A stretch of DNA of 64,000 bases from Myxococcota bacterium (GTDB lineage Bacteria > Myxococcota_A > SURF-8): contig OZ223209.1 in the NCBI GenBank assembly GCA_965140415.1, positions 4,064,001 through 4,128,000 of the forward strand, in the 5' to 3' direction. Shown here in pieces: positions 1,793 to 30,398 of the stretch. A program made the position numbers and the translations under genes. Under the pieces are notes generated by a model. It was not told the DNA's origin, searched no databases, and was given only the letters and a program-made list of their open reading frames with translations. Every line of letters begins with the position of its first letter. Positions within the stretch are counted from its first letter, which is position 1.

Positions 1793-2001
1793 CGCTTGTC
1801 AGCCCTGCCCTTGGCCGTGTTACTGGCTTCGGCTTCGTTCTCTTCGGCCTCTTTCGACCACTGCATGAGCACGTCGAAAAAGCCTGCAAATCGTCTGGCG
1901 ATCACGCGGCATTGCTCGTCAGATAGTTTCTGCCCCAACCGGGGTTCCCAGACCTCTCTTGTGCGCCGCATGAAGTCTGGATTTGGTTTCGTCCGTTCCA
2001 T
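1789..2001 (-). CDS. Small hypothetical protein (70 aa) of a type often seen near serine recombinases
   Basis: MERTKPNPDFMRRTREVWEPRLGQKLSDEQCRVIARRFAGFFDVLMQWS. Its stop overlaps the next start; ATG at 2001 chosen as start. Confidence 0.6.
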   Translation of the reverse strand: MERTKPNPDFMRRTREVWEPRLGQKLSDEQCRVIARRFAGFFDVLMQWSKEAEENEAEASNTAKGRADKR

Positions 2002-2103
2002 GCGTAAAGCATAGCAACCGTGCGAAATGATCGCAACGCCTAACTGGTTGTTATTGTTCCAATATTTGGCTTTTTGGCACGTTGGCAAAAAGTGAAGCTG
2101 TTT

Positions 2104-3198
2104 TTACCAATCTTCGGTGGGGGGTGATTTGCGAATGCTTTCAAGCAAAAGGGGATCGTTGCGCTTGAGAAACTCTTCGGCAAGGCTGCGGTAATGTTTG
2201 CGGTGGAAATCGGTGTCTCGGTGCTTTGGGATATTTACGTCGATATAACCCAAATGCGCCACCAACAGGGCTAGATCGTATAAATCCATCCTCGGGTATT
2301 GGCGGGCAAACAGGCGGTACAGTTCCAGCGCCTCCCAGTGTTTGCACTCTTCATTGGTGTTGGGCAGTTTGCCTTGAAGGAATTTTAGGTGCAGGTCGTC
2401 TGCTGCAATGCGGGCTTCAAGAAAAGCCATAAGCTTCTCTTGTTCCTCTAGGGCACCCTGCTCATCGTCCAAATCCTCCAAAAAGATTTCCCCACCTTCG
2501 GTGGCTGCCGGTGGTGTCCGGTGACCAGCGCCCTCTTGGGTTTCTCGGTAAGCCTGCTCGGCCTCTTCGGCGGCTTTGCGGAAAGTGGCGATCACCTTTT
2601 CCACATCTGCATTGCGCAAGCTTTCGGCTTGTTTGATAACCTGCTTTACATCGCTTTCCAGCAAATCCCAATCCACAAAGTGCTTGTGCTCAAAATAATA
2701 CCGCACATCCTGATGCGTCATTGGCCAATAGCTAGAGTCAATTTCGGCCAATAAGCGTTTGACAAGCATGTCATCGCCCATGTCCCTAGCTTTTTCAATT
2801 TTGCCCTGCATGCGCTCGTACCAGCGCGCTTTATGACCGGATGTGGTCGTTGCATGGCAAATGTTGTGGATAAGGCGGGCATCCACTTGGGCGAGTTCAA
2901 CTGGCTCGAAGTCTTCGCGGGTAACCTTCGCCCACTGGCGTTTGGTGTAGCCTGCCTCGTCAAAGTTCATCGTAATGCAGGCGGGGTCGATCAAAATGCG
3001 CTTGTTTTCCGTGTCTGTCAGGTGGGCAAACAGCTTGTATGGCCAATGCTCTTCACCCAAGAAAGCTGCCTGCCATTTGCCGTCTTCATTCCACCGGTGA
3101 AAATATCTGCGGTTGACCTCTTCAAAGCGCCATTGCAGCACGTCATAGGCGATGGCCGGGATGTTTTTGTGTGGGTATGCGGTGCTTATAGTTGCCAT
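2104..3198 (-). CDS. SprT-like protein with a degenerate zinc motif
   Basis: N-terminal FEEVNRRYF and LIHNICH...GH..RW resemble SprT-like HExxH...H, with E replaced by N; acidic C-terminal half. Confidence 0.5.
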   Translation of the reverse strand: MATISTAYPHKNIPAIAYDVLQWRFEEVNRRYFHRWNEDGKWQAAFLGEEHWPYKLFAHLTDTENKRILIDPACITMNFDEAGYTKRQWAKVTREDFEPVELAQVDARLIHNICHATTTSGHKARWYERMQGKIEKARDMGDDMLVKRLLAEIDSSYWPMTHQDVRYYFEHKHFVDWDLLESDVKQVIKQAESLRNADVEKVIATFRKAAEEAEQAYRETQEGAGHRTPPAATEGGEIFLEDLDDEQGALEEQEKLMAFLEARIAADDLHLKFLQGKLPNTNEECKHWEALELYRLFARQYPRMDLYDLALLVAHLGYIDVNIPKHRDTDFHRKHYRSLAEEFLKRNDPLLLESIRKSPPTEDW

Positions 3199-3199
3199 G

Positions 3200-4246
3200 T
3201 CAGTGCCGAAAGGTTTCTATCTTCGCGCTTAGGGCCGCTTCCAATTCTCCAAGCTTCGCAAAGATGTTGCGCATTTGCTCTCGGCGGGCATCGAACATGC
3301 CTTGCCTCTGTACATCAAGGTCATCAAACAATTCACGCACTCGGGTAATCCATGCCTTGTCCCGATGGTCATCGTCTTGAAACACTTCGTTGAACTGCTT
3401 TTCAAAATCACGAAAGCCCATAACGTCAAACCTGCGGCCTTCGGACAACCTGCTGTCAGTTATGACCATATCGCCTAAAGCCGCCTGCCAATCCCTGTAC
3501 AGGTTGGCCTCTCGAATGCCAAGAACCTTACAAACCTCTTGTTTATGCTCTTGTGCAAGCTCAACAGGGAAATCGCCATGCAGCTTCTTGGCTAGGTACT
3601 CGCACACGTCTTTAACCAAACATGCTTGGCCATCAGCTTCTAGGTCGTTGGGTGTCGATACGCCTGCACCATGCAAATTGCTGCGCATTAGGTTTTCCAA
3701 ACCAATGGCAAGGTCTTTTTGTGCCTTTTCATCATCTGGCAAAGATACCCCTTTGCCCACCAATGCCGTGATTTCTTCAAGGCGTTGCAGCTCAATATGT
3801 GCGCCATCCGCTAAAGCTTTCTCAAGTGCTTCAATGTGGTCTGTAATTTTGTCATTATCAGGCTTTTGCGCGGGATCGAGCAGTGCCCGTTCTCTGCGAA
3901 AAGCTCTTATCCATCCAAGCACGGCAACCAAGCGGTAAACCGTGCCATGATACTTGTACACGTGGTATGGCGTATGAGGGGCCTGAGTGCTAAGGTAAAT
4001 CTGTCTTCCGGGTTCTTCGATAATTTCCTTTAAACGCCACCGAAGCGAGCCCACAGCAGAATGCAGGGGATCGGCATACAAGCGGAAAACATCTTTTCGG
4101 TGTTGCCGGGCCTTTTCTTCTCTTTGCTGGAAATTTTCCTCTGCGCTTTTACGGTGCAAATAGACCGCACTAAGAGCACCGACAAGTGCTCCACATGTCG
4201 CGCCACAAAAAGCAAAAAGCCCCGCCGCAAATTGAGAATCCATCAT
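3200..4246 (-). CDS. Hypothetical protein with N-terminal transmembrane helix
   Basis: Start at MMDSQFAAGLFAFCGATCGALVGALSAVYL (hydrophobic) followed by a charged helix; tightly packed in the operon after mrr. Confidence 0.7.
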   Translation of the reverse strand: MMDSQFAAGLFAFCGATCGALVGALSAVYLHRKSAEENFQQREEKARQHRKDVFRLYADPLHSAVGSLRWRLKEIIEEPGRQIYLSTQAPHTPYHVYKYHGTVYRLVAVLGWIRAFRRERALLDPAQKPDNDKITDHIEALEKALADGAHIELQRLEEITALVGKGVSLPDDEKAQKDLAIGLENLMRSNLHGAGVSTPNDLEADGQACLVKDVCEYLAKKLHGDFPVELAQEHKQEVCKVLGIREANLYRDWQAALGDMVITDSRLSEGRRFDVMGFRDFEKQFNEVFQDDDHRDKAWITRVRELFDDLDVQRQGMFDARREQMRNIFAKLGELEAALSAKIETFRH

Positions 4247-4268
4247 AAGCCCCTTATGCTGCCCATAC

Positions 4269-5441
4269 CTACAGTTCTTCCTCATCCCGCATGGTAGCAA
4301 AGAACGTGTCGTCCACCTCTTCAAGCTCTAGCTGGGTTTTCTTGACGCCAAGGCCGTACTTGATAAGCATGCGCACCAACTCGTCGCCGTTTATCAGCGT
4401 AATGGGTGCCGCATTCGGGAAAAGCGCCGCCTCTTGGCAGCCCTTGGTAAAATCGCTCAGCGTTATCAGCGTGCCGCGAATGGCATTGTGGTAGGGCAAG
4501 CAGCCCCGCAACTGGTCGAGGATCGGGCGGGCAACGTTGTTTCGCTGGCGTTTGACCTGCACCACTTCGGTTACGGTGGTGATACCGAACTGCACGCTGC
4601 CCACCACGTCAATGCCCTTGTCGCCGCTTACTTTGGTGACTTCGACATCTTGGTAATCCATCGCGTCCAAGAGCGCCCCGACAAGCTCTTCAAACTTTGC
4701 GGGCGGCATGTTGTGCAGGGTTTCCCTCAGTTGGTCGCGTTGTTCGGTGTTGAACGCCTGCACCATGCGGGTGATGTCCTGCTTGGGGTTTTCGCCCTGC
4801 GGTTTGGCCGCCCCAATGTATTCATTGCCCGCATCGGTAATGCTGTAGCTGTTGCCCTCGCGCATAACAAGCCCGCGTTCCACAAGGTTGAGCAAGCGCC
4901 GCCGCAAGGTGTCAATGGTTGTGCTGGTTTTGCCAAACTTGCTGTACTTGTGCAGGTAGTCGCCCCAATCGCCCAACAGGTCGCCACGCTTGGCGCTGGG
5001 TTTTGCCGCAAGCAGGGTAAGCAGGTGGAAAATGCCTTCCTGCTCGTCAAGTTCGCGGACAATGGTTTCGTCACCAACCAGAAACGCTTCGCCATTGTCG
5101 CTTAAACTATAGACACCCGAACCATTCGTTTCCAACAGTTCGTAAAGGTTGACAAGTAGATACCCGCCATAGGCGTGGCGCGGGTTTACCTGCTTCATAC
5201 TGTCCCACCACAGGTGATTGGCCAGTTCGGCACTTACACCTCGCAAACGCTCGTGTATCCAGTCATCAGGATCGGACCAATCCACCGGCTTTTGCGGTGT
5301 GCCGGTCTGCTCGTGGATGCATTTGATCATCTCACGGATGTTTTCCTTTGGTGTACCGTGCCAGATGCGAAGCAAGTGTCGCACGGTGGTGTAGTCGGGG
5401 AACAGGGGCGAACGCACACGGTATTGGCTGGGTTTGAGCAT
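4269..5441 (-). CDS. mrr: Mrr-family (type IV) restriction endonuclease with N-terminal winged-helix-like region
   Basis: C-terminal Mrr catalytic motifs: FEELVGALLDAMDY, SGDKGIDV, VQVKR, RGTLITLSDFT, ITLINGDEL. Confidence 0.88.
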   Translation of the reverse strand: MLKPSQYRVRSPLFPDYTTVRHLLRIWHGTPKENIREMIKCIHEQTGTPQKPVDWSDPDDWIHERLRGVSAELANHLWWDSMKQVNPRHAYGGYLLVNLYELLETNGSGVYSLSDNGEAFLVGDETIVRELDEQEGIFHLLTLLAAKPSAKRGDLLGDWGDYLHKYSKFGKTSTTIDTLRRRLLNLVERGLVMREGNSYSITDAGNEYIGAAKPQGENPKQDITRMVQAFNTEQRDQLRETLHNMPPAKFEELVGALLDAMDYQDVEVTKVSGDKGIDVVGSVQFGITTVTEVVQVKRQRNNVARPILDQLRGCLPYHNAIRGTLITLSDFTKGCQEAALFPNAAPITLINGDELVRMLIKYGLGVKKTQLELEEVDDTFFATMRDEEEL

Positions 5442-5452
5442 GGGGCTTATTC

Positions 5453-6631
5453 CTATTTTGAAAGCTTTCCGAAATGAAGCAGTGCCATAAGCATTCTATA
5501 ACCCGAGGTTGGGTGCCATTCCCTTAGGAGTTCCTCTGGATTTTCCAAAAGTAACGCGCGCAATTCGGCACGGCTCATATACCGCCAAGTGCTGAATTCA
5601 TAATCGGTTCGGGGGCTGCCGTGAAGAATTGAATCTAGCTGTTGACGTGTCAGAGAAAGCTTGATAATCACACAAAGCGCAATGTTTAGGATGTCGCCCT
5701 CAAGAAAAAGCGAAAGCAACTTGCAGTTATCCAAACTAAAATGCCCGTCCTCCTCATAAAGGCTCATTTCCTCATCTAACAAACGAGCGGTCCATTTGCC
5801 CAATATTCCATGCTTGGCAGTTCCTTTTAGGTCGTCTATTTGAATTTGCTCTTCTAGAGACGCCGCCCACTTGCCCCCATGCCATGCCATGTCTTTATTA
5901 CGGCGAACTATCAAACACAATGGGTCAGTATCTGCCGTGAAGATGATCGAATGTAAACAAAGACTGTTTGCAAATGTAACCCTTCGATCCACATATAGCT
6001 GTTGAAGTGCGGCCTCTCGCATTTCTGGGTTTGTGGCGATGAATTCGTTCGAATATCTAACCACGCTGTATTTTGTGTTTACAACTCGAAGCGTTAGCTC
6101 TTTATCACCATCAGAATATACTTTGGGCAACAACGCCAAGCATAGTTTGTCGCCATCACGCTGGAATTCATCCGCCTTATCGTCTGCATAATTGCGATAG
6201 GACTGGCTGTGCTCTTCTGGAAGGGCAAATGCCTCATTTGTGTAAAGCAGCTTGACCATGCTCAAAGGCCAACCACTAGCAGCATGCTTAACACCATCAG
6301 GGTGAATCTCAATGCTTTTTGCATTGCCGTAAATGGGGGGTCCAGGGTTGATCTCCCTAAACAATGGGTCGGTATGTTTTTCTGCAATTTCGGCAAGGAT
6401 TTCCCATGCAGTTTTTTCTCTTTTATTTTCTCTCCATGCAAAATAGACATTCTTAAATATCCAATAAATGGCTGCCATTGCTAAAAGAACAATAGCGAAA
6501 TACATTGGCTCAATTATTGGTTTATCCGGTGGGTATACGACAAAAACGACGACGGCCCCAAAAACAGCAAGCCATAATGGTAATGCTATTTTTTCCAATC
6601 TCGACATCACATAACCTTCTTTTCGAAACAT
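5453..6631 (-). CDS. 2-TM protein with C-terminal Nudix-like domain
   Basis: Two N-terminal hydrophobic helices; LIVRRN...GKWAASLEEQ...RLLDEEMSL resembles a divergent Nudix box; AT-rich relative to its flanks. Confidence 0.6.
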   Translation of the reverse strand: MFRKEGYVMSRLEKIALPLWLAVFGAVVVFVVYPPDKPIIEPMYFAIVLLAMAAIYWIFKNVYFAWRENKREKTAWEILAEIAEKHTDPLFREINPGPPIYGNAKSIEIHPDGVKHAASGWPLSMVKLLYTNEAFALPEEHSQSYRNYADDKADEFQRDGDKLCLALLPKVYSDGDKELTLRVVNTKYSVVRYSNEFIATNPEMREAALQQLYVDRRVTFANSLCLHSIIFTADTDPLCLIVRRNKDMAWHGGKWAASLEEQIQIDDLKGTAKHGILGKWTARLLDEEMSLYEEDGHFSLDNCKLLSLFLEGDILNIALCVIIKLSLTRQQLDSILHGSPRTDYEFSTWRYMSRAELRALLLENPEELLREWHPTSGYRMLMALLHFGKLSK

Positions 6632-6643
6632 ATCATTTCCCTT

Positions 6644-6739
6644 TCACCCTTCCTCCACCAACCGCACTTTATCCATCCTTACGGTGGCATAGTCGGGGAA
6701 CAGGGTCGAACGCACGCGGTATTGACTAGGTTTGAGCAT
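6644..6739 (-). repeat. Chimeric mini-ORF (31 aa): copy of the mrr 5' end fused in frame to a copy of the type IIG 3' end
   Basis: Translates MLKPSQYRVRSTLFPDYATVRMDKVRLVEEG*. Mrr begins MLKPSQYRVRSPLFPDYTTVR (ATG at 5441); the type IIG protein ends EVRLVEEG* (stop at 7487). Confidence 0.92.
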
Positions 6740-6763
6740 GGGGTGCTGTCTCGTTATTTTAGG

Positions 6764-7483
6764 TTATAGTTTCTTAATCTCTGCAACAGTTTGTTTAAAC
6801 TCACTCATAGTCTGATGAATTACACCCCCCATTCCCACAATGTAAACAATGGCTATAATGGGAAAAGCCAACTTATCGGACACGGTCTGAGGTACAAGCC
6901 AGCAGCAAACAAAAAATATCATCAGCAGTATTGCTCCGCTTAAAGCGCTATCACGCCTATTGGCTTTTATACGTTTAAGGTGTGGTTTGATTACTCTGTC
7001 CCAAATGTTGACTTTCGGATCATTCTCAAAATCTTGCGTTTTTAGTAATTGTATTCTGTTGTGAACAAGGAATGATGCAGTGAAGCACATCATGCTCATT
7101 ACCAGCAACCACGCCATAGGTGCCACCTCCAAAGCTCCGGGAGTAAGCACTGCGAAACTTAAAAATTCCACCACAGCCATAATCATTGGTAGTACCAAAT
7201 CGTCGAAATTCATACGGTAGGTTACAAGTAATGTACCACTTTGGGTTGTTAGATGAGTTACGAGAAATGAAGAAAAACTAGCCAGCCAAAACAACAATAA
7301 CAGGATATTATTATCATTTGCCATGAGTATTAATGAAAGTGTGTAGGCCGCGTATGCCAGTGAAGTGCCTTTCATTATGCCATAGGAAAACGTGTACGAG
7401 GCCCGCGTATTGTCCTTCGCCCTGCATTTCAAATCATCTTTAGATATCTGCATGCTGCACATGGCTTCAGTTTTCTCTTCCAT
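6764..7483 (-). CDS. Hypothetical polytopic membrane protein (~6 TM)
   Basis: 239 aa with multiple hydrophobic segments, AT-rich; starts 3 nt after the type IIG stop. Confidence 0.7.
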   Translation of the reverse strand: MEEKTEAMCSMQISKDDLKCRAKDNTRASYTFSYGIMKGTSLAYAAYTLSLILMANDNNILLLLFWLASFSSFLVTHLTTQSGTLLVTYRMNFDDLVLPMIMAVVEFLSFAVLTPGALEVAPMAWLLVMSMMCFTASFLVHNRIQLLKTQDFENDPKVNIWDRVIKPHLKRIKANRRDSALSGAILLMIFFVCCWLVPQTVSDKLAFPIIAIVYIVGMGGVIHQTMSEFKQTVAEIKKL

Positions 7484-7486
7484 TTT

Positions 7487-10400
7487 TCACCCTTCCTCCA
7501 CCAAGCGCACTTCGGTGTCGGTGAGGCCGTACAGCTTGTAGGTCAGGGCGTTCATATCGGCTTCGGCACAGGCGATTTGCTCGTCCAGCGCTTGGATGTC
7601 GGCGTCGATTTTCACCACCTGCTTGCAAATGGCGTCGTTGTCCGTTTTGCGCAGCTTCAGCAGCAAACCCAGCAGGCGTTTGGCGTCGAACTTCTCGGTT
7701 ACGTTCGTCTGCCGCGCCTTGTGCCGCCACTGTGCCGCAATGAAGCTGGCTTCGTCGTCGTCCACGAAAATGCCCTCGATCAGCGCCGCGCCGTTTGCCA
7801 ACACGCGCAATTCGCCCATGTCGTTTTCCACCGTCAGCCGCACACCCGGTTGCAGCATGGCGTTGATGCGGTCGAAGTAGGCGGTCAGCTTCAATTCGCG
7901 TTGCAGCTTGGCCCATTCTGTCAACGCTTTGCCTTTCAACTCCGATGGCGCGGTTTTCTTAAGCGTCGCCACGGTTTCGACATCATCCCACAGCCATTTT
8001 TCGTTGCGCATTTCGTCGCTGCATTGCGGGCTGTTCAGGCGCTTGTCGATTGCAAGCTGCAAGTCGCGCCGTTTGGTGTGCAGGTCTTGCAGGTGTTTGG
8101 CCTTTTCGGCCACCTTGGCTTTGTCGTCGTCGCTGGCTTTGGGTATGGGCAGGGGGGCGATAAACTGTTTGTTTGCTTCGTAATAGCCGCCCGCCTTCGG
8201 TTTGGCAATGCGCTTGAAAATGTAATCGCAAAGCGGGGCATTCAACACACCAAGCAGAAACCAGCCGGTTTCGATATCGGTAGGTATAATGCCGTTCACC
8301 CGCACGTTGTTGAAGTAAAACGCGCCTTCGCTGTCGTAGCACACCCGCATGCCGGGCACCGTTTGCCCCACACACAGCTTGGGGATTTCCTGCTTGTCGA
8401 TGTTTTGGTGGCGGCCAAAGCGATACCATTGGTCGTCGTCAAATTTGCCCTTCTCCCGTGCTCTTAGTTCTTTTTCGTAGCTCACAAGGTAAGCCCACGC
8501 TTTGGGATATTGTTTCGCCATTTCACTGGCAGTATAAAGGTGCACTTTTCCCTTTGTCACAAGGTACGGAAAAAGCAAATGCGTGTTTGTGTTTGGTACT
8601 TCAAAGCGCTTTGCATCCGGCCCTGAAACCAGCGGGTGCATGATGGCATCTTCAATTTCCACTTCCACCGGCTCTTTATTGCCCTGTGGTTTGTGCAAGT
8701 ATCGGTTTGGGGCTATGCGCTGCAAGTGGTATATGTAATCGGCACTTGTTTGAATGCCAACCATAATGCCTTTGCAAGATTTGTTCAAACGCTTGCAGCT
8801 TGCAATCAACTTTTCATGAAGCGCCCGCTCGGTGTTGGGCATAAGCACCCAACCGTCATCTTGCGGCAATTCGGCATAAAAGGCGCTGTCTTCCACTTCT
8901 CGCCAATCCACCGCCGCAATATCCTGCTTGCCATGCGGGGCAAAGACGCACCGGATGCGGTCGTGCGGGAAGCCGGTAAAGAATTGCAGGGCGGTATAGG
9001 TAATCGCCTCGTCAAACACCTGATAGCTTTTGAAATCAATCCAGCGATCCAGCCGCCGCGTGCGCCTGAGCTTTTGCCGCAAGCCCCTGCCGTATTCGTT
9101 GACCATCCACACGTTGGGCGCGATGTAGCCCATTTTGCCCTGCGGGTTCAAGAGTTCCACGCCACGCTCGATAAAGGGCAGATACAAATCGAAGTTGCCC
9201 GTTTGCGTGCTTTCATAAAGCGGCCCGCCGCCCTCGCGCTTGGCGTTCAACAAATAGCCCGCCACGTCTTCCTGTATCTTGCGGAAGTGTTGCAGCTTTA
9301 CATAAGGCGGGTTGCCGATGACGCAATCAAAACCGCCGTTTTCGCGGTTAAACACTTCGGGGAAGGTTTCCCGCCAATCAAAGGTGTTCACGCGCTCCTG
9401 CTCGTCTTCCGAGAACATATCCCGGCTTTGCTGCACTTGGGCGTAGAAATCATGGCCGATCAGCGAATTGCCGCAACGGATGTTTTCGTCCAGCGTGGTC
9501 AACGGGCGATCCGGCAGCGCCGTATGCAGCCACAAAGCCAACCGGGTGATCTCCACCGATTCGGCGTTGATGTCCACGCCATACAGGTTTTTGGAAAGCA
9601 CCGCACGCATGGCCGCGTGGGTGTCGAACAGGCCCATGCTGCCGGTCACGCGCTCAAGCTCTTTGGCGATCCACTGGCGTTGCTCGTACAGATATTTGAA
9701 CGCCTGAATCAGAAACGCGCCCGACCCGCAAGCCGGATCGACCACCTTCAGCTCGTCCATGCGGTCGCTGTATTTGTGCAGGGCGGCTTCGTATTCCGCA
9801 ACCACCTTGTCTTTGCGCTTGTCTTGGCGGTGGGTGCTGATTTGCTCGTCGGTGACATCGGTAAACTTGTCAAAGCCAAGCTCTTTGCGAATCTCGGCCA
9901 AGCGCGCCCCAACGGTTTCCTCCACGATGTAGTGCGTCACCCATTCGGGCGTGTAGTACACACCATCGCGCTTGCGCTTGGTAAGCTCTGTCAGCGATTC
10001 GCGTCCCTCGGCATGAGCTTCCATCACTTCCAGTTCGGTAATGCTCTGCTCGAAAATGCGCCCCATAGCCGTAAGCGTCAGGGTGCGCCCGTCGCCTTCA
10101 TCCGACGCGCCGAAGTTGTACTTGGCCGACAAATACAGCAGGGTGTCGGGGTATTTCATCAGACGCTTTTCGCTCTGCCCTTGGTTCTGCCTGCAAAACA
10201 CCGTGTTGGGCAACTTAAGCGCGTCCATCTCCTTGTCTTCGGCAAACAGCCCACCGTTAAAGCGGTTGATGCGTTCCTTGCCAAAGGGCGTGCCGTCGCG
10301 CATGGATACAAACAACTGCCGGATGCGGTTCCATGCGTTGGTGCCGTTTGGGTCGTAGTATTCGTCGTTGGACACGTAAATCAGCACATCCCTGAGCACG

Positions 10401-11329
10401 TTTGGCGGGAAGCTAAGCTCGCGCCCCATGTCCTCGCAGTACAGGATGAAAATGCAGCGATCCATAATGCGCTGGGTAAACTTGACCAAACGCCGCAAGC
10501 GGCCTTCCTGCTCGTATTGCGGGTTGTGCTTGCGCAGCGCCTTGTAAATGGCTTCTCGGTAGGCGTGGTATTCCTTGTAAAACTCGTTTTCCAACGCTTC
10601 TTCATGGGTGATCTGCGCATCCAACAGCTTTTCAAGCGGGCTTTTGCCGCTGGTCGCAAGCAGGCTGTCGCGGTGGAAGGTTTTATAGAACAGAAAACGG
10701 TGGAACGCCGCGTCGGTATCGTCGCCCAAAAGCGAATGAGCCAGGTCGCCCTCGGCTGGCTTGATGACAAAGCGCTGGTATTGCGCCTTGTTGCCGTACA
10801 GGTACAGCCGGAACTCGTTCATATCCGTAACCAAGCCCCATGTGGGCAGAATGGGCGAAATCAGCCCCGTGCGGGATTCCCGCAAATAGTCGAGGCATTG
10901 GTCAACGGGCGAGCGGTCGTTGGGGCGGTTCGATTGTGGCTTGTCCAGCCCGGAGCGGTCGTCTTTGAATTCGCCCAATACCTGCGGGATTTCTTCCATG
11001 TCCGCTTGGCCGAAAAAGCCCAAGGCCAAATCGGCTTCGCCGGTGCCGCCACGCTGCCCCGCGCCTTTGACCGGGTATTGCTGTTGCAGGGTGTAACCTT
11101 CGCCTTTTACCGCTTCGCCGCTGGCCACATAGCCCCACGTCTGCTTGAAAAACACGTCAATAAACGTGCCCTCGCTGGCGGTTTCCTTCTGCCAGTCTTT
11201 TGCAGCCCAATTCTGCAAGCGGGTCAAGAGGGCTTGGGCTTCGTCGCTATCGTTAAACGCCTCAAACTCTTTCGCCCAAATCGAGCGAAGGTAGGCGGTA
11301 TTGAACAAAGGCTGATGCTTCTCAGGCAT
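7487..11329 (-). CDS. Type IIG (Eco57I-like) fused restriction endonuclease / N6-adenine methyltransferase
   Basis: N-terminal ADLALG...LGEFK nuclease; FNGGLF; GVYYTP; motif I VVDPACGSGAFL; LYGVDIN; motif IV IGNPPY; C-terminal target recognition domain (TRD) region. Confidence 0.93.
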   Translation of the reverse strand: MPEKHQPLFNTAYLRSIWAKEFEAFNDSDEAQALLTRLQNWAAKDWQKETASEGTFIDVFFKQTWGYVASGEAVKGEGYTLQQQYPVKGAGQRGGTGEADLALGFFGQADMEEIPQVLGEFKDDRSGLDKPQSNRPNDRSPVDQCLDYLRESRTGLISPILPTWGLVTDMNEFRLYLYGNKAQYQRFVIKPAEGDLAHSLLGDDTDAAFHRFLFYKTFHRDSLLATSGKSPLEKLLDAQITHEEALENEFYKEYHAYREAIYKALRKHNPQYEQEGRLRRLVKFTQRIMDRCIFILYCEDMGRELSFPPNVLRDVLIYVSNDEYYDPNGTNAWNRIRQLFVSMRDGTPFGKERINRFNGGLFAEDKEMDALKLPNTVFCRQNQGQSEKRLMKYPDTLLYLSAKYNFGASDEGDGRTLTLTAMGRIFEQSITELEVMEAHAEGRESLTELTKRKRDGVYYTPEWVTHYIVEETVGARLAEIRKELGFDKFTDVTDEQISTHRQDKRKDKVVAEYEAALHKYSDRMDELKVVDPACGSGAFLIQAFKYLYEQRQWIAKELERVTGSMGLFDTHAAMRAVLSKNLYGVDINAESVEITRLALWLHTALPDRPLTTLDENIRCGNSLIGHDFYAQVQQSRDMFSEDEQERVNTFDWRETFPEVFNRENGGFDCVIGNPPYVKLQHFRKIQEDVAGYLLNAKREGGGPLYESTQTGNFDLYLPFIERGVELLNPQGKMGYIAPNVWMVNEYGRGLRQKLRRTRRLDRWIDFKSYQVFDEAITYTALQFFTGFPHDRIRCVFAPHGKQDIAAVDWREVEDSAFYAELPQDDGWVLMPNTERALHEKLIASCKRLNKSCKGIMVGIQTSADYIYHLQRIAPNRYLHKPQGNKEPVEVEIEDAIMHPLVSGPDAKRFEVPNTNTHLLFPYLVTKGKVHLYTASEMAKQYPKAWAYLVSYEKELRAREKGKFDDDQWYRFGRHQNIDKQEIPKLCVGQTVPGMRVCYDSEGAFYFNNVRVNGIIPTDIETGWFLLGVLNAPLCDYIFKRIAKPKAGGYYEANKQFIAPLPIPKASDDDKAKVAEKAKHLQDLHTKRRDLQLAIDKRLNSPQCSDEMRNEKWLWDDVETVATLKKTAPSELKGKALTEWAKLQRELKLTAYFDRINAMLQPGVRLTVENDMGELRVLANGAALIEGIFVDDDEASFIAAQWRHKARQTNVTEKFDAKRLLGLLLKLRKTDNDAICKQVVKIDADIQALDEQIACAEADMNALTYKLYGLTDTEVRLVEEG

Positions 11330-11505
11330 TTACACTTCTCCAAAAAGCTGGTTGAAATCGGCAAGTTGATGTGCGCAAAAAATATCACGCAGGACTTGGA
11401 ATTGCCAGATAAAATAATGTGGTCATCCCGCTATTTGCATGTTTTGCAACGGCGTATGACATATTCTGTCACATGGTCTGCTCGATTTGCCCACAGCGCA
11501 GCAAA

Positions 11506-12006
11506 TCATTTATCCCATTCAATGTCGATGGTTTCGATATCGGCTTTCTTTAGCGCTGCAATGGCATTGCTTGAGCCGCCTCTAAAGACTAGCCACACGA
11601 CTGCCTCGACATAGCCAGCTTGTAAAAGCCACCGGTCTTTTTCGATTTGCGCCCTTGTGCTTTTGTTTAGGTAAACGTAGCCGGATTTTACTTCCACCGC
11701 CAACCGCAAGGAATCGTAATACAAGTCAATCCTGCGACGACCATGCGGAGTAATGAACGTCTTCTGCTTTTGCGGCTTGTCGTCCGGTCCTATCCGCAAG
11801 CGGTCACGCAGGTTGTTGACAGTAAGCACCTCTCCCATCAATTCAAACAATTGCCCCCTTGTACGGTTCTGCAAGTTGCACATCTCCCGATAAACTTTGG
11901 GGCGAATAATGGCCGGATCAACCCCGGCATCGCGTAACACTGTTTCCATGTTCTTCTTGAAATATTGGCGACGATTGGCGGCAAGTTCTTTTTTGTACGA
12001 ATTCAT
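11506..12006 (-). CDS. PD-(D/E)XK nuclease resembling polymorphic-toxin REase tips
   Basis: TPHGRRRIDL...AVEVKSGYVYL...QIEKD..LL...VEAVVW; the ATG at 12006 overlaps the upstream stop (ATGA). Confidence 0.7.
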   Translation of the reverse strand: MNSYKKELAANRRQYFKKNMETVLRDAGVDPAIIRPKVYREMCNLQNRTRGQLFELMGEVLTVNNLRDRLRIGPDDKPQKQKTFITPHGRRRIDLYYDSLRLAVEVKSGYVYLNKSTRAQIEKDRWLLQAGYVEAVVWLVFRGGSSNAIAALKKADIETIDIEWDK

Positions 12007-12925: not shown

Positions 12926-15583
12926 CTATTTCTTTTTTTTCTTTTTACGCCGTTCCCAAATATCTGCTACCCAATTTTCGAGTGCGTCTATGTCCTGCTT
13001 TAGCTGGTCGGGGGTGGGCATATTAAAACCGCCCATCGCTGCTGCATCGTCGTGCCCTCTGTGGAAGGCAGAACATTTCCCCATGTTATCATCGATAACC
13101 TTGTAATCACTTTCCGAAATATCTAGTGCATTCTCAAGCCGTTGCGTTTCGACTGATGCCTTATACCGCATTACTGTTCGGTTAAGCAGCACTTCCTCGA
13201 TGCCTCTTTCCCACGCTTCACGAAGAAAACCGTACAGTTCCTTTGCTGCGGTTTCGTAATCTTTGCTGGTTTGGGTGCGGTGTATTTTTTCGGCGGCATG
13301 CCATTTATTTCTAAGCCAACCAATGCGCCTTTTGGTGGTCATGCCGGGCCACGGCAAACCCGGTTCGCATCGACCAACTCGGTCCCCCTGTCTTACAAGT
13401 TCAATGGCGGCGAAATCAGCTCTCATTTCTTTGGCGGATTCCTCCAAGGCCAGCAAGAAGATGATGTCATGTGTGAACACAACTACCTGTCTACCTCTTG
13501 CTTCTTCGGCCAATCGTCCAGCCACCCATCTCCTATATCGGTGGTCAAGTGAGCACACAGGGTCGTCAAACACAATGCCTGACTCTGTGGTTACATCAAG
13601 CTCCGCAAGAAAGGCTGCCAAAGCAATAACGCGGTGTTCGCCCTCGCTCAAAATGACATCAGGGTTGGGAGCCGTCGATGCCGTGTTTGCCAGCACAATA
13701 TGGTGGTATATAGCCCCCCTTTGGCCACCGGCGCTTTCCAACTTAGGCTGAATACCTACGACCCCAAGCTTCTTTAACTCGCTCTCAAATGCTTTACACA
13801 AACTGTCGGTAATTTCTTGCTCAGCAATTGCCTTGGTTGCCCGTGTTATATGTGATGTGTTGGTTGCGGCTTTTGCCTTGGTAAGCAACTCAATTCGCTT
13901 CAACGCATCCAGATAACGGAGCACCTGTTGTCGCTTTTGGCCAAGCATTTCTTTCGCTTCTTGCTCGCTTATCTGCTGTTGCACCTTTTCCTGCTCGGCG
14001 CTGTTGTCCTTGTTGCGCAGTTCGGCAGCCTTTGCTTGTTTATCATCAAGCAATTTCTTGAATTTGGGTAAGGCGTCGTCTGACATCTTGCCAATATCTG
14101 GCATTGTTGGCGATTCGCCACCTCTTACAACCAGCTCAAGCTCACCAATTGCCGCCTGTATTGCGGTTGCAGTGTCGAGGAATTCTCGCAGGGCTTTCGC
14201 TAAATCGGATGCATCAGCCTCTATCTCTTTGAGAACATTGTCGTCGCTGTCACCACGCACCCTAAGTTTTGCTTCTGCCATTGCCTTGCAAGCTGCAAGA
14301 ACCGCCTCTTGTGCTTTTTCCTCCTGCTGTTGCGTATCCGTGCGCACAAATTCTTCAAACCGTTGCAAACGATCTGTGGCGGCAACATCAAGGGGTTGAT
14401 GGCAAAGTACGCATTGCGCCTGATCTTCTGTAACCGGAAATTCCTGCTTTGAATAGGCGGCTTCGGTGGAGTATCTCCGAGCCGCATCCCAAAGAGTTTT
14501 CCACGGGCTTGTTCCCACACCGTTGAGAAGCGCATCATCATCGCTGAATGCCTGCTGTTGGGCGGCCTTGGAAGCCTGCTGTGCAGTGGTATATTCCGCA
14601 AGCTTGCTGGCCAATTGTGATATAGCATTCTCACCCAAACCAGCCTGAATCTTTACAAGGCGCTGGTATAGAGGGTTGCATTGGCTTACAAGCCTGTCGA
14701 TAGCTATTGCATCGTTTTGCGGGTTTGCTTTCTTAAGCCGTTCAAGCTCTTTTTTTAACTCTGCTAGCTTCTTTTTCTCTTCATCGCTCAAACCTGCAAG
14801 CTTTTTGACCTCTTCCGGGTCTGTGGATGCATCAAGGCTGCCAAACAGTTTGCTTACTGCGGTGTTTTGTGGAGGGTCGAAGGGCAACCCGTCATCTTTA
14901 ATGCGGTTACTTTGGTCAAACTCTGCGTTTAGCACCTCTTGCACCTGCCCGCATACTTTGGCTAGCTGCGATAAGAGATCCATGCCAGCCGGTTGATAGG
15001 CAGGGTCGGTTTTATCCGCAATGTACACTTGGGCTGAATTGTGGTCGAACACGCTGATCTGTGATAGTTCATCCGGCGCTGGCTTGTTGTTTTGCCAGTC
15101 GAAAGCAAGTTTCGTTTGCCTGTTAATGCTGAACTCAATTGTGGCTTTTGGTTCAGCGCGGTTACCGGTGTTGGCGTTCTTCTCAACTTTCTCTTTTTGG
15201 CCACGTGCACGGCAAGCCTGTTTTATTACTCTCGCATAGCTTGACTTACCGCTGCCATTGTCTCCGTAAAATACGCTTAGACCATTCTGGCTGAATGGTA
15301 GCGTTTGCTTATCTACTGTTGCACATACATTGAAATTCTCATGAAGCTTTTCAAGGCGAATCGATTGTATATTTGTGCTTTGGTTTGGAAGGTGGCTTGC
15401 CTCAATGGGCGTTGGTTCAAGCTCAATACCCTTCCAGCCCTGCTCCTTTTTGCAAAGCTTCGCAACTTCCTCAATATCCTGCTGCGATAATGGGCCATTG
15501 ATATGTACAATTCTACGCAGAGCGTCTTGCTGCCATTCGGGCCAATCTTGCGCACAACTTAAAACTTGTTGGTAAACGTTCAT
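12926..15583 (-). CDS. Rad50/RloC-like ABC ATPase with zinc hook and putative C-terminal HEPN-like domain
   Basis: Walker A GDNGSGKS, coiled coils, CVLC hook, signature LSEGE, Walker B FDDP, H-loop FTHD; C-terminal LREAWERGIEE...HDD; RBS GGAGG before the ATG at 15583. Confidence 0.8.
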   Translation of the reverse strand: MNVYQQVLSCAQDWPEWQQDALRRIVHINGPLSQQDIEEVAKLCKKEQGWKGIELEPTPIEASHLPNQSTNIQSIRLEKLHENFNVCATVDKQTLPFSQNGLSVFYGDNGSGKSSYARVIKQACRARGQKEKVEKNANTGNRAEPKATIEFSINRQTKLAFDWQNNKPAPDELSQISVFDHNSAQVYIADKTDPAYQPAGMDLLSQLAKVCGQVQEVLNAEFDQSNRIKDDGLPFDPPQNTAVSKLFGSLDASTDPEEVKKLAGLSDEEKKKLAELKKELERLKKANPQNDAIAIDRLVSQCNPLYQRLVKIQAGLGENAISQLASKLAEYTTAQQASKAAQQQAFSDDDALLNGVGTSPWKTLWDAARRYSTEAAYSKQEFPVTEDQAQCVLCHQPLDVAATDRLQRFEEFVRTDTQQQEEKAQEAVLAACKAMAEAKLRVRGDSDDNVLKEIEADASDLAKALREFLDTATAIQAAIGELELVVRGGESPTMPDIGKMSDDALPKFKKLLDDKQAKAAELRNKDNSAEQEKVQQQISEQEAKEMLGQKRQQVLRYLDALKRIELLTKAKAATNTSHITRATKAIAEQEITDSLCKAFESELKKLGVVGIQPKLESAGGQRGAIYHHIVLANTASTAPNPDVILSEGEHRVIALAAFLAELDVTTESGIVFDDPVCSLDHRYRRWVAGRLAEEARGRQVVVFTHDIIFLLALEESAKEMRADFAAIELVRQGDRVGRCEPGLPWPGMTTKRRIGWLRNKWHAAEKIHRTQTSKDYETAAKELYGFLREAWERGIEEVLLNRTVMRYKASVETQRLENALDISESDYKVIDDNMGKCSAFHRGHDDAAAMGGFNMPTPDQLKQDIDALENWVADIWERRKKKKKK

Positions 15584-15882
15584 CCCCACCTCCAAAACAC
15601 CGCAAAAAACTACCGAAACGATGTGGCAACTATAAGGCATTTCAGGCAGACTGAAAAGAATAATATGCAAAGGTAATACTTTAAGTGTGCCAGAATATGT
15701 CATACCTTGCATGGTGCTGCTTTGTGGCAACAGCGCGTGAAGGGCGACACAGCCTGATTGCAGCTTGCAACTTGCAATTGCAGGCTGCAAGTTGCGGGTC
15801 GCGGGGTCTTCGCATTTTCTCGCAAGGAATGAGTTGCTCCGGGGCGCGAGGCTCCGTTAACATGGCTGCAATAGGAGGCGCG

Positions 15883-22089: not shown

Positions 22090-23838
22090 TTATGCCATAG
22101 CTTTTACAAACAACGGTGCTTCGATAGCAAGGTAATCTCGCCCCTGTTGTGGCGTCATCAAAAAGGCTGCAAAGGCATTTGTAAACGCGAGCCAATCTTT
22201 ACAGTCCGACGCACCATCGTTAACCAGTGCGTCGGGCTTTTTCGTTTTATGCTCTGATTCCACAGGGTTGGCGTGTTCGTACAAATGGACACGCATTGTG
22301 CCCTTGTTCTTGTCCTTCTTGTCCCAACGCCACTCGATGAACTCGATGTACTGCTGGAGGATGGCCCGGAGGCGCTTCCACTTGCCCTGTTTGACCAGTC
22401 CATCGACGATATCCGGGACGTTTTTGTAGGACTCTGTGATGACTTCCGCTGAGAGAAGTTTCTCCTCTGTGGCCGCTTTCTTCTCCTGCAACTTCTCCAA
22501 ATCAGCCTTTTGCCCTTTTTCATCGTCGGATAATTCGCGAAGACGCTTCCTGAGTGGGCCTACATCAGCGCCATCCTCAATGGCCTGTACGATGGTCGCG
22601 ATCTTGGCTTTCACGTCCTGTAGGGCCTTCTTGGTGCGGCTGATGTCCCTGTCCAGGGTCTTCAGGGTCTTACTGCGAAGCTCGTTTGCCTTCTTGACCA
22701 CACGCTGCATCTCTTCTTCGTCCAGCACCGCCTGCTTCAGGAGATCGATGACGAACTCTTCAGCGGCTATGGCGGGAACATACCGGGCATCGCAGTCGTA
22801 CCCGGCGGAGACGTTCTGTTTGGTGCAGTTGTAGTAATGATGGAGGCCGTTACGACCGGTGCTGGACCGCGGGGTCATCATCGACCCGCATTGTCCGCAA
22901 CGGATCAGCCCCTGCAGAAGATATTCGTGCTTCCGCTCTTCCGGCGCGATGGGCGGTCGTAGACGGTTCTTGCCGAGGATGTCCTGAACCTGGTCGAAAA
23001 GCTCCTGTGGGATGATTGGGTCGTGGACACCGTCGTACGTCTTGCCATGATGGGAAACCTTGCCGACATAGACCGGATTGGTCAGCATGTTGATAACCGC
23101 CGGTTTGCAGTATGGTGTGCCACCGTGGGCTTTTCCCCGCCTGCTGACAGTCTTGGGCGAAACGATCCCTTTCTCCCGTAAATGCTTGTGAACCTTCCCC
23201 GCACTTCCCAGTTCCACGCACTTCTCGTACACGTCATGAAGAAGGAGGTCGGCCTCATCTTCGTTGATGACGAGATGCCCCTTACGATTGGGGTCGACAT
23301 TGTAGCCGAATGGCACATGCCCGCCGTTGAATAGACCCTCACGGGCGCGGTGAGCCATAGTGTCGGCAGTTCTTTCAGCGGTCAGTTCCCTTTCGTACTG
23401 TGCGAAAACCATGTGTACACCCATAAAGGCTCGACCCGATGCACTGCTCGTGTCAAATTGTTCTTTCACGGATATGCAGTCCGTCCCCAATTCGTTAAGA
23501 CGTTCCAGCAGTCGATAGAAGTCAAGAATGCCTGCACGGCTAAGACGATCGAACTTGGCAGCTACAACGGTATTGATCCGACCGGCCTCCACGTCCCTCA
23601 TCATTCGCTGGAATTCAGGTCGATTGAAGTCCTTGCCGGACTTCCCTTCATCCCTGTATCGGTCCACGATGACCCATTCAACATCAGGATTGGCGTCCTG
23701 ATTGAGTTTGATCTGGCGCTCCATCAAGTCGAACTGGGTATCAAGTCCACCATGGTCCACGCGAGCCTGTCTATCTGTACTCACACGTCCGTAAAGCGCG
23801 CAGAGCTTTCGTTTCTTTATCTTTTTCTTCTTGGCCAT
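22090..23838 (-). CDS. Large serine recombinase (integrase)
   Basis: YGRVSTDRQ catalytic motif, DRLSR, PFGY, LTNPVYVG, H.PII, zinc ribbon CGQCG...YYNC...C, coiled coil; RBS AGGAGG. Confidence 0.95.
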   Translation of the reverse strand: MAKKKKIKKRKLCALYGRVSTDRQARVDHGGLDTQFDLMERQIKLNQDANPDVEWVIVDRYRDEGKSGKDFNRPEFQRMMRDVEAGRINTVVAAKFDRLSRAGILDFYRLLERLNELGTDCISVKEQFDTSSASGRAFMGVHMVFAQYERELTAERTADTMAHRAREGLFNGGHVPFGYNVDPNRKGHLVINEDEADLLLHDVYEKCVELGSAGKVHKHLREKGIVSPKTVSRRGKAHGGTPYCKPAVINMLTNPVYVGKVSHHGKTYDGVHDPIIPQELFDQVQDILGKNRLRPPIAPEERKHEYLLQGLIRCGQCGSMMTPRSSTGRNGLHHYYNCTKQNVSAGYDCDARYVPAIAAEEFVIDLLKQAVLDEEEMQRVVKKANELRSKTLKTLDRDISRTKKALQDVKAKIATIVQAIEDGADVGPLRKRLRELSDDEKGQKADLEKLQEKKAATEEKLLSAEVITESYKNVPDIVDGLVKQGKWKRLRAILQQYIEFIEWRWDKKDKNKGTMRVHLYEHANPVESEHKTKKPDALVNDGASDCKDWLAFTNAFAAFLMTPQQGRDYLAIEAPLFVKAMA

Positions 23839-23895
23839 CTTACATCCTCCTACGATGCGTATTGTTAGTATTGGTATCCCATGCTATCCATTGTG

Positions 23896-24081
23896 TCAAT
23901 CCTTTTCCGCCTCTTCGGGTTCCTGTTCCTCAGGATCAACACCAACCAGTTCCGCCAACCCACCGGCCAGCGCGTCAATAAAGTTCTGGCGAAAGTTGTT
24001 CGAGCTTTGCTTTTTCTTTTTGGTCTGGGAGCTTTCAGATTTTACTATCTCACCCTTTATTTTGAGCTTTGATTTGGGCAT
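23896..24081 (-). CDS. Small hypothetical protein upstream of the recombinase
   Basis: 61 aa, RBS GGAGG, co-oriented directly upstream of the integrase. Confidence 0.6.
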   Translation of the reverse strand: MPKSKLKIKGEIVKSESSQTKKKKQSSNNFRQNFIDALAGGLAELVGVDPEEQEPEEAEKD

Positions 24082-24186
24082 GACTGCCTCCTAACCTGTT
24101 GAACACAGGCAGGATTTCAGCAAGGTGGGTGAGAATTGAGAGTCAATCTTCTGGGAAGGAACTGGGAAGGAAGGAATGCTTTAATT

Positions 24187-25725
24187 TCAATATGTTAGGT
24201 AGAATCCCGCATCTATTATCAGACAGTAAGTGGCATCCGAATCCGGGATAAAAGAGACTTCATGATGTCGAGTCACTTCTATGTATGGATTTGCCTTTTT
24301 GAAGAGACGAAAATCGGATGCTGCATCGAGTTTTCTGCGAAGATTAAAGAAGTGCTTTCTTCTGGAGTCTGGCGTTGTTGTATGTCTCAATCCTAAAAGC
24401 CGCGATGGCATAATTGGCGATTCATGTTTAACGAAACGTTGGAGATATGCAATCAGCACTTCTAATTCAGCTGAAGTAATATTTTCCTCGGGTCTTCGGC
24501 GACCGCTCTTTTTACTGATTCGTGAATATTCTTTATAGCATACCAGGAAATGTTCAAACTCCCGTTCCCGCTCGATCATTTCCTGAACTTCATCTTCGGT
24601 CATTAGATAGTGGGGAGAACGGCCCGTTTCATGGGTAAAGCAGACGGCCTTAGGCTCTCCTAAGAGAAATGGAGTCGTCTCTTGAGCGAAGTGATGTTCT
24701 TCGGTGAGATGGCTTTTTGCCTCGTCAACAAACTCCTCTGCAATCTTAAATTGTACAATATCCGAATCTTCAGGACCGAACCGTGCACGAGTAATTTCCG
24801 GCTTAATGATGGTCAACTCAGATGGGTGCCAACCAGTGACGTTGATTCCGTCTAAGCCACAATAGGTAAAAAAGCTTTTCTCAATGGTCAGTTCTTGGAA
24901 ATCGGCTCCGATGAAGTCGCATGATTTGAACCTTGCAAGAGTAATATTGCTCTCGACAAAGCTGCATTCATTGAACATACATTCCTGAACTATGCTTCCT
25001 TGCCATCGGCTGCGCCAGAAACCTATGTTTTCCGCAGCGACCTCGTGGAGTGTGGCGTGCGAGAAATCGGCCTGATCAAGCGTTCCTTCAAAATCCGCAT
25101 CTTGTTCATAGTGGGATATTGAGCCCGCCTTCCAACCGAAAACTCCAATCCGGCATAGATTGCCATGTTGCCATCCGGTCGAATCCAAGGAGCAACTGTC
25201 GAACATGCAGTCTTCCAGATCCGTTCCAGGAAATTTCGCTTGCGATAAATCGGTATTGATGAACTTGCAGTCCCGAAACGTCGATTTCGTGAAATCCGCA
25301 AAAGAAAAGTGAGCAGAAGAAAAGGAACAGTCATAGAAGCTATTTTCTACGGAAAACAGGGTATTGCCTGTGTTTCTGACGGTAACACAATCAAAGTTTA
25401 CTCTCTGCAGAACGGATTCATCTCTAAAACTCACATCATTCAGGTTGGCATCGGTGAAATTTACATCGACCAGACGACAGTTGGAAAAGGTAACCCCGGA
25501 AAGATGCAAGCGGTTCCTTTTCATTGGTTGCTCAGGTTTCGTTTTCGTTTTTCCAGAACTCTCTCGGGTGGGTATTGTAAACAGAGCACCATCAAGTTTG
25601 CATCCCGAGAAATCAACATCAATTATTCGGACTTCGGATTGTTTGTAGATCCACTCGTTCCATTCCTGCACTCGGCCTTCATGGAGTAGATAGACAGGTG
25701 GTTTTTCATTACTTCTTCCCGCCAT
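24187..25725 (-). CDS. Pentapeptide-repeat protein with C-terminal putative DNA-binding domain
   Basis: Long A(D/N)F/L xx-type repeats (ADFTKSTFRDCKFINTDLSQAKF...); EWNEW N-cap; C-terminal ITSAELEVL...FFNLRRKLD resembles a winged-helix output domain. Confidence 0.8.
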   Translation of the reverse strand: MAGRSNEKPPVYLLHEGRVQEWNEWIYKQSEVRIIDVDFSGCKLDGALFTIPTRESSGKTKTKPEQPMKRNRLHLSGVTFSNCRLVDVNFTDANLNDVSFRDESVLQRVNFDCVTVRNTGNTLFSVENSFYDCSFSSAHFSFADFTKSTFRDCKFINTDLSQAKFPGTDLEDCMFDSCSLDSTGWQHGNLCRIGVFGWKAGSISHYEQDADFEGTLDQADFSHATLHEVAAENIGFWRSRWQGSIVQECMFNECSFVESNITLARFKSCDFIGADFQELTIEKSFFTYCGLDGINVTGWHPSELTIIKPEITRARFGPEDSDIVQFKIAEEFVDEAKSHLTEEHHFAQETTPFLLGEPKAVCFTHETGRSPHYLMTEDEVQEMIEREREFEHFLVCYKEYSRISKKSGRRRPEENITSAELEVLIAYLQRFVKHESPIMPSRLLGLRHTTTPDSRRKHFFNLRRKLDAASDFRLFKKANPYIEVTRHHEVSFIPDSDATYCLIIDAGFYLTY

Positions 25726-25862
25726 GTAATTTTCCCGGGTCAGCAATCCATTTCAAAATTGGTTAATAATCCCTGAGGGAACGAGTCATTACTTATAGCA
25801 TTAATGCTGAATCAGCTCAAAATTCCAGGCCCAATCGCTAGCGTCTTCCATTGATCCACCCC

Positions 25863-26639: not shown

Positions 26640-26702
26640 GGTTTCACCCAAATTCGAGGCGTCCGTTTGTACAAAGCAAAGGAACTAATTTTGACAAGGC
26701 TA

Positions 26703-30353: not shown

Positions 30354-30398
30354 AGGGGGTCCTCTTACACCGGTATAGTCAAAAAAGATGTCGAACGA

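Follow-up and report, generated by a model that had tools for sequence, protein, structure and literature searches.

A chimeric mini-ORF at the joint between two cargo genes in a variable slot of a Myxococcota defence island

The type IIG-mrr slot and its chimeric joint

We analyzed a 64,000-nucleotide (nt) stretch of DNA, the window, from a Myxococcota bacterium (assembly GCA_965140415.1, contig OZ223209.1, positions 4,064,001 to 4,128,000). In the window a slot bounded by a type IIG restriction-modification gene (IIG) and an mrr gene holds two cargo genes, A and B, with a short open reading frame (ORF) between them. ORF calls place these genes on the minus strand in the order type IIG, cargo A, mini-ORF, cargo B and mrr, the ATG of cargo A lying 3 nt past the IIG stop codon. 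The features of the slot are listed here in that order (aa, amino acids; TM, transmembrane; D1 and D7, direct repeats).

7487..11329, minus strand: predicted type IIG restriction-modification gene, 1280 aa; borders the slot upstream
7485..7512, minus strand: IIG 3' end arm, resident copy; final 25 nt of IIG followed by AAA; D7
6764..7483, minus strand: cargo A, a 239-aa multi-pass membrane protein; GC 41% (0.410)
6681..6743, minus strand: mrr 5' arm, scar copy; first 59-60 nt of mrr preceded by CCCC; D1
6644..6739, minus strand: mini-ORF, 31 codons, chimeric joint; MLKPSQYRVRSTLFPDYATVRMDKVRLVEEG*
6670..6680, minus strand: spacer at the putative illegitimate joint; 10-11 nt, like neither gene
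6642..6669, minus strand: IIG 3' end arm, scar copy; D7
5453..6631, minus strand: cargo B, 392 aa, with two N-terminal TM segments; GC 44%
5383..5445, minus strand: mrr 5' arm, resident copy; D1
4269..5441, minus strand: predicted Mrr-type (PDC-S02) restriction endonuclease gene, 390 aa; downstream flank of the slot

The mini-ORF had been described, from the letters alone, as the start of mrr fused in frame to the end of the IIG gene, and both alignment and a repeat search confirmed this. Its nt 1-60 are identical to nt 1-60 of mrr at 53 of 60 positions, and the 4 nt ahead of the ATG (CCCC) are common to both. Its other arm, the last 28 nt with TGA and AAA included, matches the IIG 3' end at 27 of 28 positions. 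The repeat search recovered the two arms as direct repeats D1 (63 nt, 90% identity, 5383-5445 and 6681-6743) and D7 (28 nt, 96% identity, 6642-6669 and 7485-7512). The arm copies have mismatches at 7/60 and 1/28 positions, and no stretch of identity between them exceeds 15-20 nt. Both matches are far beyond chance, with E 6.7e-10 for the 28-nt arm (blastn-short against the DNA downstream of IIG) and E 2.6e-17 for a 61-nt mrr arm against the mrr of a relative. When the IIG arm was pushed past 28 nt by eye, 6 of 18 positions matched, which is the chance level. The scar copy of the IIG arm gives the mini-ORF its stop codon and the native spacing to cargo B. Each cargo gene sits between an IIG end and an mrr start, a point of the earlier note on which the alignments and the repeat search agree. 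The order of the arms at the scar is mrr start, then IIG end, as in a tandem-duplication or circle junction.

Both flanking genes are full length. The 7487-11329 product matched Pfam Eco57I (4.1e-43) and MmeI_Mtase (6.6e-16), with TaqI_C under its cut-off (3.4e-05), and PADLOC model REase_MTase_IIG (PDLC03629) at 1125.7 bits over 2-1179 of 1182 model positions. It is predicted to be a type IIG restriction-modification enzyme, having in a single polypeptide an Eco57I/MmeI-type gamma-N6 methyltransferase and a C-terminal specificity domain. The 4269-5441 product matched Mrr_cat of Pfam (2.6e-26, residues 242-359) and PADLOC PDC-S02 (PDLC04796, 1.1e-167, 3-384 of 390 positions), and is predicted to be an Mrr-type PD-(D/E)xK nuclease of type IV, listed by PADLOC as candidate PDC-S02.

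The earlier note had named an assembly chimera of two strains as an outcome that would overturn it. This stretch is present once in the genome, which was assembled as a single 5.98-Mb contig. We checked its reality in two public runs of one study, X1 and X2, each kept as contigs. In X1, which may be the source sample, the whole two-cargo stretch lies inside one 42-kb contig. In X2, the second sample, a 1614-nt contig covers 6348-7961 (cargo B start, scar, cargo A and IIG end) and another covers 5270-5661 (cargo B end and mrr start), both with 0 differences. A chimera is contradicted by the contig that crosses the scar in the second sample, and the two-cargo structure is treated as real. That an assembler stitched the haplotypes IIG-A-mrr and IIG-B-mrr in series is extremely improbable: the genome is a metagenome-type single-contig assembly, and the X2 contigs vary in depth along the stretch with some ending in unlike sequence, but arms of 28 and 60 nt that are unlike between copies and split by unmatched bases are not what haplotype stitching via shared sequence would yield, and the contigs of both samples carry the arrangement.

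Contig depth in X2 is about 48 over 5549-8000 and about 24-32 over 4800-5548. Two X2 contigs end in unlike sequence at a GATC (5270-5273), and at 7961 a minor contig of 60 nt branches off. These depth steps and loose ends could be strain variants or library junctions.

Cargo and flanks in related genomes

To follow the slot beyond the window genome (G000), 101 related genomes were searched with Mrr and with IIG. G002 and G004 belong to the same family as G000, and G006 to the same order. The prediction that the slot would hold variable cargo was borne out, its content differing in the relatives G004, G002 and G003. In this Myxococcota defence island the space between IIG and mrr is a hotspot of variable cargo. 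G004 codes for u3, u2, u1 and IIG followed by a single unrelated cargo gene, C (a 333-aa membrane protein), and Mrr. Its flanks are about 83-84% (IIG) and 89% (Mrr) identical to those of the window at the aa level. DNA homology between G000 and G004 halts at the IIG stop codon (window 7483) and restarts at 5452, 11 nt ahead of the mrr ATG. G004 also has a second IIG paralogue (76%, locus G004:C2), which is followed by AbiD (PADLOC 4.9e-80; Pfam Abi_2 2.5e-58).

Two loci were found in G002. At G002:C59 a different IIG-type gene (IIG', 1178 aa, Type_ISP_C) precedes cargo D (329 aa) and a 58-codon mrr remnant. The remnant is 167 nt long and is an open frame whose stop overlaps the ATG of the next gene. 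At G002:C2, cargo E (328 aa) and a full-length mrr follow the C-terminus of an IIG' gene of that type. The G002:C2 contig ends inside its IIG' gene, the rest of which is on no other G002 contig. Compared across these loci, the IIG' ends share 92% identity over 292 nt, and for the mrr starts the figure is 79.6% over 167 nt. In G003 an IIG (64%) is followed by cargo F and G and then the contig end, with no scar between F and G. Five loci gave eight cargo genes (A to G plus AbiD), of which AbiD alone has a known defence family. The seven unnamed cargo genes have a GC content of 0.38-0.48, the flanking genes 0.50-0.61 and AbiD 0.53.

Sliding identity between G000 and G004 showed that the flanks are mosaic. 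Upstream, u1 and u2 are 99% identical. Within IIG, nt 1-1950 are 95-99% and the last ~700 nt 91-97% identical. The specificity region (nt ~1950-3100, window 8230-9380) is 45-70% identical and looks like a swapped target-recognition module. In mrr, identity is 84% in the first 90-nt window, 70-74% over nt 46-400 (window 5041-5395) and 92-100% past nt ~400. Conservation is higher over the first 60 nt (21 codons) than in the part that follows them, and the cargo seems to be accompanied by the Mrr N-terminal domain when it moves. With the IIG tail and the 3' two thirds of mrr both conserved, the slot has natural arms for ordinary homologous replacement. The usual exchange would be homologous recombination in the last ~700 nt of IIG and in mrr beyond nt ~400, in which the cargo would move with the diverged 5' module of mrr and no scar would be left.

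The arms of the scar were compared with these alleles. Five of the seven differences in the mrr arm had been counted as synonymous, which our alignment confirmed. Against the G000 mrr the ratio of non-synonymous to synonymous differences per site (pN/pS) is 0.13 by the Nei-Gojobori method, with P=0.012 for at least five synonymous changes of seven under neutrality. The mrr arm is about equidistant from both intact alleles, with identities of 53/60 (scar and G000), 52/60 (scar and G004) and 55/60 (G000 and G004). Its pS is 0.34 against both intact alleles, equal to the pS between G000 and G004. The IIG arm is identical to the G004 IIG end over 25/25 nt and has a G where the G000 IIG has a C. 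Across five related genomes the 24-mer of the IIG end is found only at IIG ends and at the scar. The arms thus came from a diverged sister and not from a local duplication, as had been proposed, and by these comparisons the mrr arm would be a piece of a third allele. The synonymous bias is expected because the mrr arm diverged inside a full-length, selected mrr of another lineage. The two non-synonymous changes, P12T and T18A, are in columns where the aligned intact Mrr proteins and the G002 remnant show no variation, P12 being unchanged even in a 47%-identical Mrr homologue. This pattern fits decay after the piece became a remnant.

Further mrr-related loci were seen in these searches. After the mrr remnant of G002:C59 (L034 7975-10391) are genes for an 82-aa Cys-rich peptide and a 461-aa radical-SAM protein, with a DUF4760 protein and a group II intron reverse transcriptase also encoded. 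They may represent a cluster resembling those for ribosomally synthesized and post-translationally modified peptides that replaced the rest of mrr. G006 has two 5'-truncated, frameshifted mrr copies (L035 12707-13595 and L036 1905-2793) that are 93% identical to the window Mrr at the aa level over residues 186-389. In a distant Planctomycetota (L068 5472-11133) a 1485-aa methyltransferase-like ORF ends 72 nt before an Mrr homologue with nothing between, an arrangement that resembles an empty slot. Downstream of mrr (window 2104-4324 versus L032 14001-15687) G000 and G004 also differ. G004 has nothing equivalent to the 374-aa ORF at 3200-4324 and shares only 43% identity in the gene after it. 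This region may be a second variable slot.

Origin of the two-cargo allele

The two-cargo allele probably arose once, by a recombination that was homologous on one side and illegitimate on the other and that added a cargo gene. DNA from a diverged allele would have recombined homologously in one flank while its other end was joined illegitimately. The joint would connect position +60 of mrr from one allele to position -28 of IIG from another through 10-11 unmatched bases. As the incoming DNA restores a full copy of the interrupted gene, both restriction genes would stay intact and the cargo would be added rather than replaced. Homology-facilitated illegitimate recombination would account for this, and an unequal crossover between the alleles would do so equally well. 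Consistent with the former, a long homologous anchor is available on one side (mrr beyond nt 400 at 92-100%, the IIG end at 91-97%) and a remnant of another allele (60 nt of mrr, 28 nt of IIG) lies at the joint. The mini-ORF would be the leftover joint, in frame by chance and without a function of its own. Promoter and terminator matches are at chance level (6 versus 6.8+-3.0 and 10 versus 11.5+-3.8, respectively). The scar is best read as the trace of a single recombination event in a newly described slot, a known kind of process and no new cassette system.

Several points weigh against this account. Only a single such junction was found, so the mechanism is inferred from one product. No A-only or B-only allele, which the earlier note had expected and which could serve as a parent, turned up in the genome and metagenome scans, and in the 401 genomes of the phylum the cargo A family is present in one, the window's own. 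The joint has its spacer of 10-11 unmatched nt and no obvious microhomology, with the parental sequences absent. Which flank served as the anchor is ambiguous, the mrr arm being about as close to G004 as to G000. The 60-nt arm is also the most conserved patch of mrr (the first 21 codons), which could hint at a non-random joint. The mrr remnants of G000 and G002:C59 are both open and end at or near the next start, which is readable as selection. Finally, nothing here documents for this organism a route by which linear donor DNA would enter, such as natural transformation.

An unlikely course, and the one that survives best beside a single additive event, is a two-step one. A second whole locus (IIG*-B-mrr*) would have inserted next to the resident locus, for instance through a single crossover with a circle, and an illegitimate deletion from mrr +60 to IIG* -38 would then have stripped the redundant mrr and IIG* bodies. 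The end product and arm order would be identical. Duplicated loci do occur in the family, as G004 has two IIG paralogues (84% and 76%), and the island encodes a large serine recombinase (22090-23838), its sole recombinase, whose gene is ~11 kb from the IIG start. Against this course, two events are required, no tandem of two full loci was found among the relatives, and the IIG-end 24-mer is only at the expected places.

Less likely still is the recurrent process favoured in the earlier note, in which cargo flanked by only 28 nt of IIG end and 60 nt of mrr start is circularised and enters another copy of the hotspot by recombining within an arm, building an integron-like array without attC sites. 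The arm order is that of a circle junction, the cargo borders are tight on the IIG stop and the mrr start when G000 and G004 are compared, and a second mrr N-terminal remnant exists in G002. That remnant, however, is 167 nt long, has a different end position and lacks a fused IIG end. Homologous recombination is also poorly served by arms as short as 28 and 60 nt with 88-96% identity, and a circular short-armed intermediate needs two rare steps.

The surveys did not reveal the array that recurrent insertion would build. A metagenome scan with the IIG C-terminus gave 201 confirmed loci, of which the best 80 were kept and 76 had at least about 100 nt downstream; one of the set (L093) is the same sequence as the G003 contig. 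None of the 76 other IIG-family loci carries a downstream copy of its own IIG end. Seven of them showed only 11-13 nt chance matches to it, while the window, as positive control, gave E 6.7e-10. Like the missing scar between cargo F and G of G003, this provides no further multi-cargo allele with a chimeric joint. PDC-S02 Mrr is downstream at none of the best 80 of the 201 loci. The metagenome scan with the Mrr N-terminus returned 58 pattern matches, 0 of them confirmed, and no further close alleles. Scanning the genome collection with Mrr gave 39 loci, of which only three are close: L038, L039 and L074, which belong to G004 and G002. Identity falls to 38-55% in the remaining 36, some of them partial, and none of these, the Planctomycetota locus L068 included, has an IIG-cargo-Mrr arrangement. 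A repeat search over 4000-12000 found no attC-like inverted repeat flanking A or B, the only significant repeats being the two direct arms. The locus has no adjacent integrase that could act as IntI, and the promoter matches give no sign of a Pc; an integron's IntI, attI and Pc are thus not seen. Site-specific tandem accretion does not describe the locus either, which has two different arms, unlike copies and no adjacent integrase. Recurrent multi-module arrays in related strains were likewise not found, there being one junction only. The integron-like array of the earlier note is therefore not upheld.

The mini-ORF itself might be functional, as a selected leader peptide or coupling ORF delivering ribosomes to cargo B, which we consider very doubtful. 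Its open frame ends 12-36 nt before the candidate starts of B, copying the native spacing between the IIG stop and the cargo start, and the G002 remnant is also open with its stop overlapping the next ATG. An in-frame joint is, however, expected 1 time in 3, and P12T and T18A both strike invariant Mrr residues. The mini-ORF ATG is not preceded by the AGGA that lies 9 nt upstream of the mrr ATG, and divergence within full-length mrr already explains the synonymous bias. A broader proposal has similarly poor prospects. There the IIG stop and mrr start would be a pair of portable arms, with promoterless defence genes moving as short-armed units, possibly circles, without an integrase and stacking into operon-embedded arrays in which remnant ORFs are kept open to hand ribosomes on. 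It is kept alive by both mrr remnants being open and abutting the next start and by the arm in G000 being the most conserved 60 nt of mrr.

Related systems, cargo proteins and neighbouring genes

Defence islands are known to swap cargo between conserved flanks, and the gain of an extra gene is rarely visible. On our reading of its origin, the scar would be base-level evidence that anti-phage loci, too, are built by the one-sided recombination put forward for toxin-immunity arrays. The slot between type IIG and PDC-S02 Mrr in a Myxococcota family was previously undescribed. As candidates for new defence functions, its seven cargo genes without a known family are reasonable though unproven. The value of the case is limited by its one junction and by the genomes being from uncultured bacteria.

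The closest parallel is with the Vibrio cholerae type VI secretion system (T6SS). Passages of Kirchberger et al. propose that modules are replaced by homologous recombination and, rarely, added by homology-facilitated illegitimate recombination that leaves remnants, and cite the same idea for orphan arrays of Rhs and contact-dependent inhibition (CDI) systems (PMC5361080). Like the T6SS, Rhs and CDI arrays as presented in those passages, the slot has a conserved anchor flank, modules from other alleles, rare additive joins and remnants, with ordinary homologous replacement as the commoner route (PMC5361080). Unlike them, it is in a restriction/defence operon, its type IIG and Mrr flanks are both intact, and it has two members and one scar.

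Defence hotspots with conserved flanks are described in parts of the literature on the enterobacterial immigration control region (PMC12707154), P2/P4 elements (PMC13586616) and Escherichia coli hotspots (see also PMC10121019). Similar to the slot, they are presented there as holding variable anti-phage cargo between conserved anchors, with exchange among elements of the same type. In the slot, unlike these hotspots, defence genes of a single operon serve as the anchors, and the borders are at a stop and a start codon. The P2/P4 study, in the portion bearing on this point, takes small unrecognisable remnants in defence loci to be traces of intense recombination (PMC13586616). Here, by contrast, both halves of the remnant are assignable to the flanking genes. 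An accessory defence gene inside a restriction operon is also known from PrrC, which is reported in a part of PMC12707154 to be embedded in the EcoprrI type IC locus, fixed and functionally coupled. The genes embedded here differ in every relative.

Like integron arrays, the slot has promoterless cargo in one orientation downstream of a fixed point. Unlike integrons, it has no IntI, attI or attC, its repeats are fragments of the flanking genes, and there is one junction. Tandem accretion at tRNA and other gene ends is integrase-mediated and leaves one att repeat with an identical core. As would hold for the slot, the incoming DNA replaces the interrupted gene end, leaving a partial target copy between inserts. 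The slot differs in having two different gene fragments per insert, in copies that differ by 4-12% and in the lack of an adjacent cognate integrase. In the literature searched, no IIG-Mrr slot or interpretable flank-derived scar in a defence locus was described, though supplementary files could hold such cases.

Cargo A had been called a six-TM protein. It is a membrane protein, with the count only approximate, as five hydrophobic segments were over the threshold. No Pfam or PADLOC family matched it above threshold, and a word-index search gave no relative. A full HMMER scan found 147 representatives of its family at E<=1e-3; the family is real but unnamed.

Cargo B had been called a two-TM Nudix protein. 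Two N-terminal TM segments are indeed present, and the evidence for Nudix is weak. The C-terminal three quarters of the protein are 33-38% identical to six proteins, five of which carry PF00383/PF14437. These five have an N-terminal cytidine-deaminase domain in place of the two TM helices of B. The Nudix box has the motif GX5EX7REUXEEXGU. Cargo B itself has no match to PF00293, which was hit weakly by one of seven family members (1.6e-4). The family profile matched the Nudix-fold isopentenyl diphosphate isomerase 2pny, also weakly (E 0.011). That the C-terminal domain is Nudix-like is thus weakly supported. The AlphaFold model of cargo B, with a mean predicted local distance difference test score of 52.9, was too poor and was not used.

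Among the relatives of cargo B, P0002, P0003 and P0005-P0007 are fusions of a cytidine/dCMP-type deaminase with its C-terminal domain, and one relative is labelled a RibD-like deaminase/MutT by one source. P0004, like cargo B, has TM helices instead of the deaminase.

Neither cargo A nor cargo B matched a PADLOC model, and of four deaminase-fusion relatives of B one gave only dCTPase (E 0.0055). Members of the cargo B family confirmed in viral contigs numbered 0, tblastn found no match to A or B in plasmids, and their protein-atlas rows are all unnamed clusters. Their context makes A and B reasonable but unproven defence candidates.

We also scanned the neighbours of IIG, which yielded a PDC-S06 ATPase and, in u1 and u2, no family. 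The 954-aa ABC/SMC-like ATPase is encoded upstream of IIG at 12926-15790 and matches PADLOC candidate PDC-S06 at 2.8e-220. This gene and two small unnamed genes beside it are all 90-99% conserved in G004. Further along, within 22090-38239, the island encodes a pentapeptide-repeat protein (24187-25746) and unnamed proteins of 1216 and 1490 aa, the latter with a weak STAND NTPase match. A second Eco57I-type IIG gene, 38% identical to the first, is at 34829-38239.

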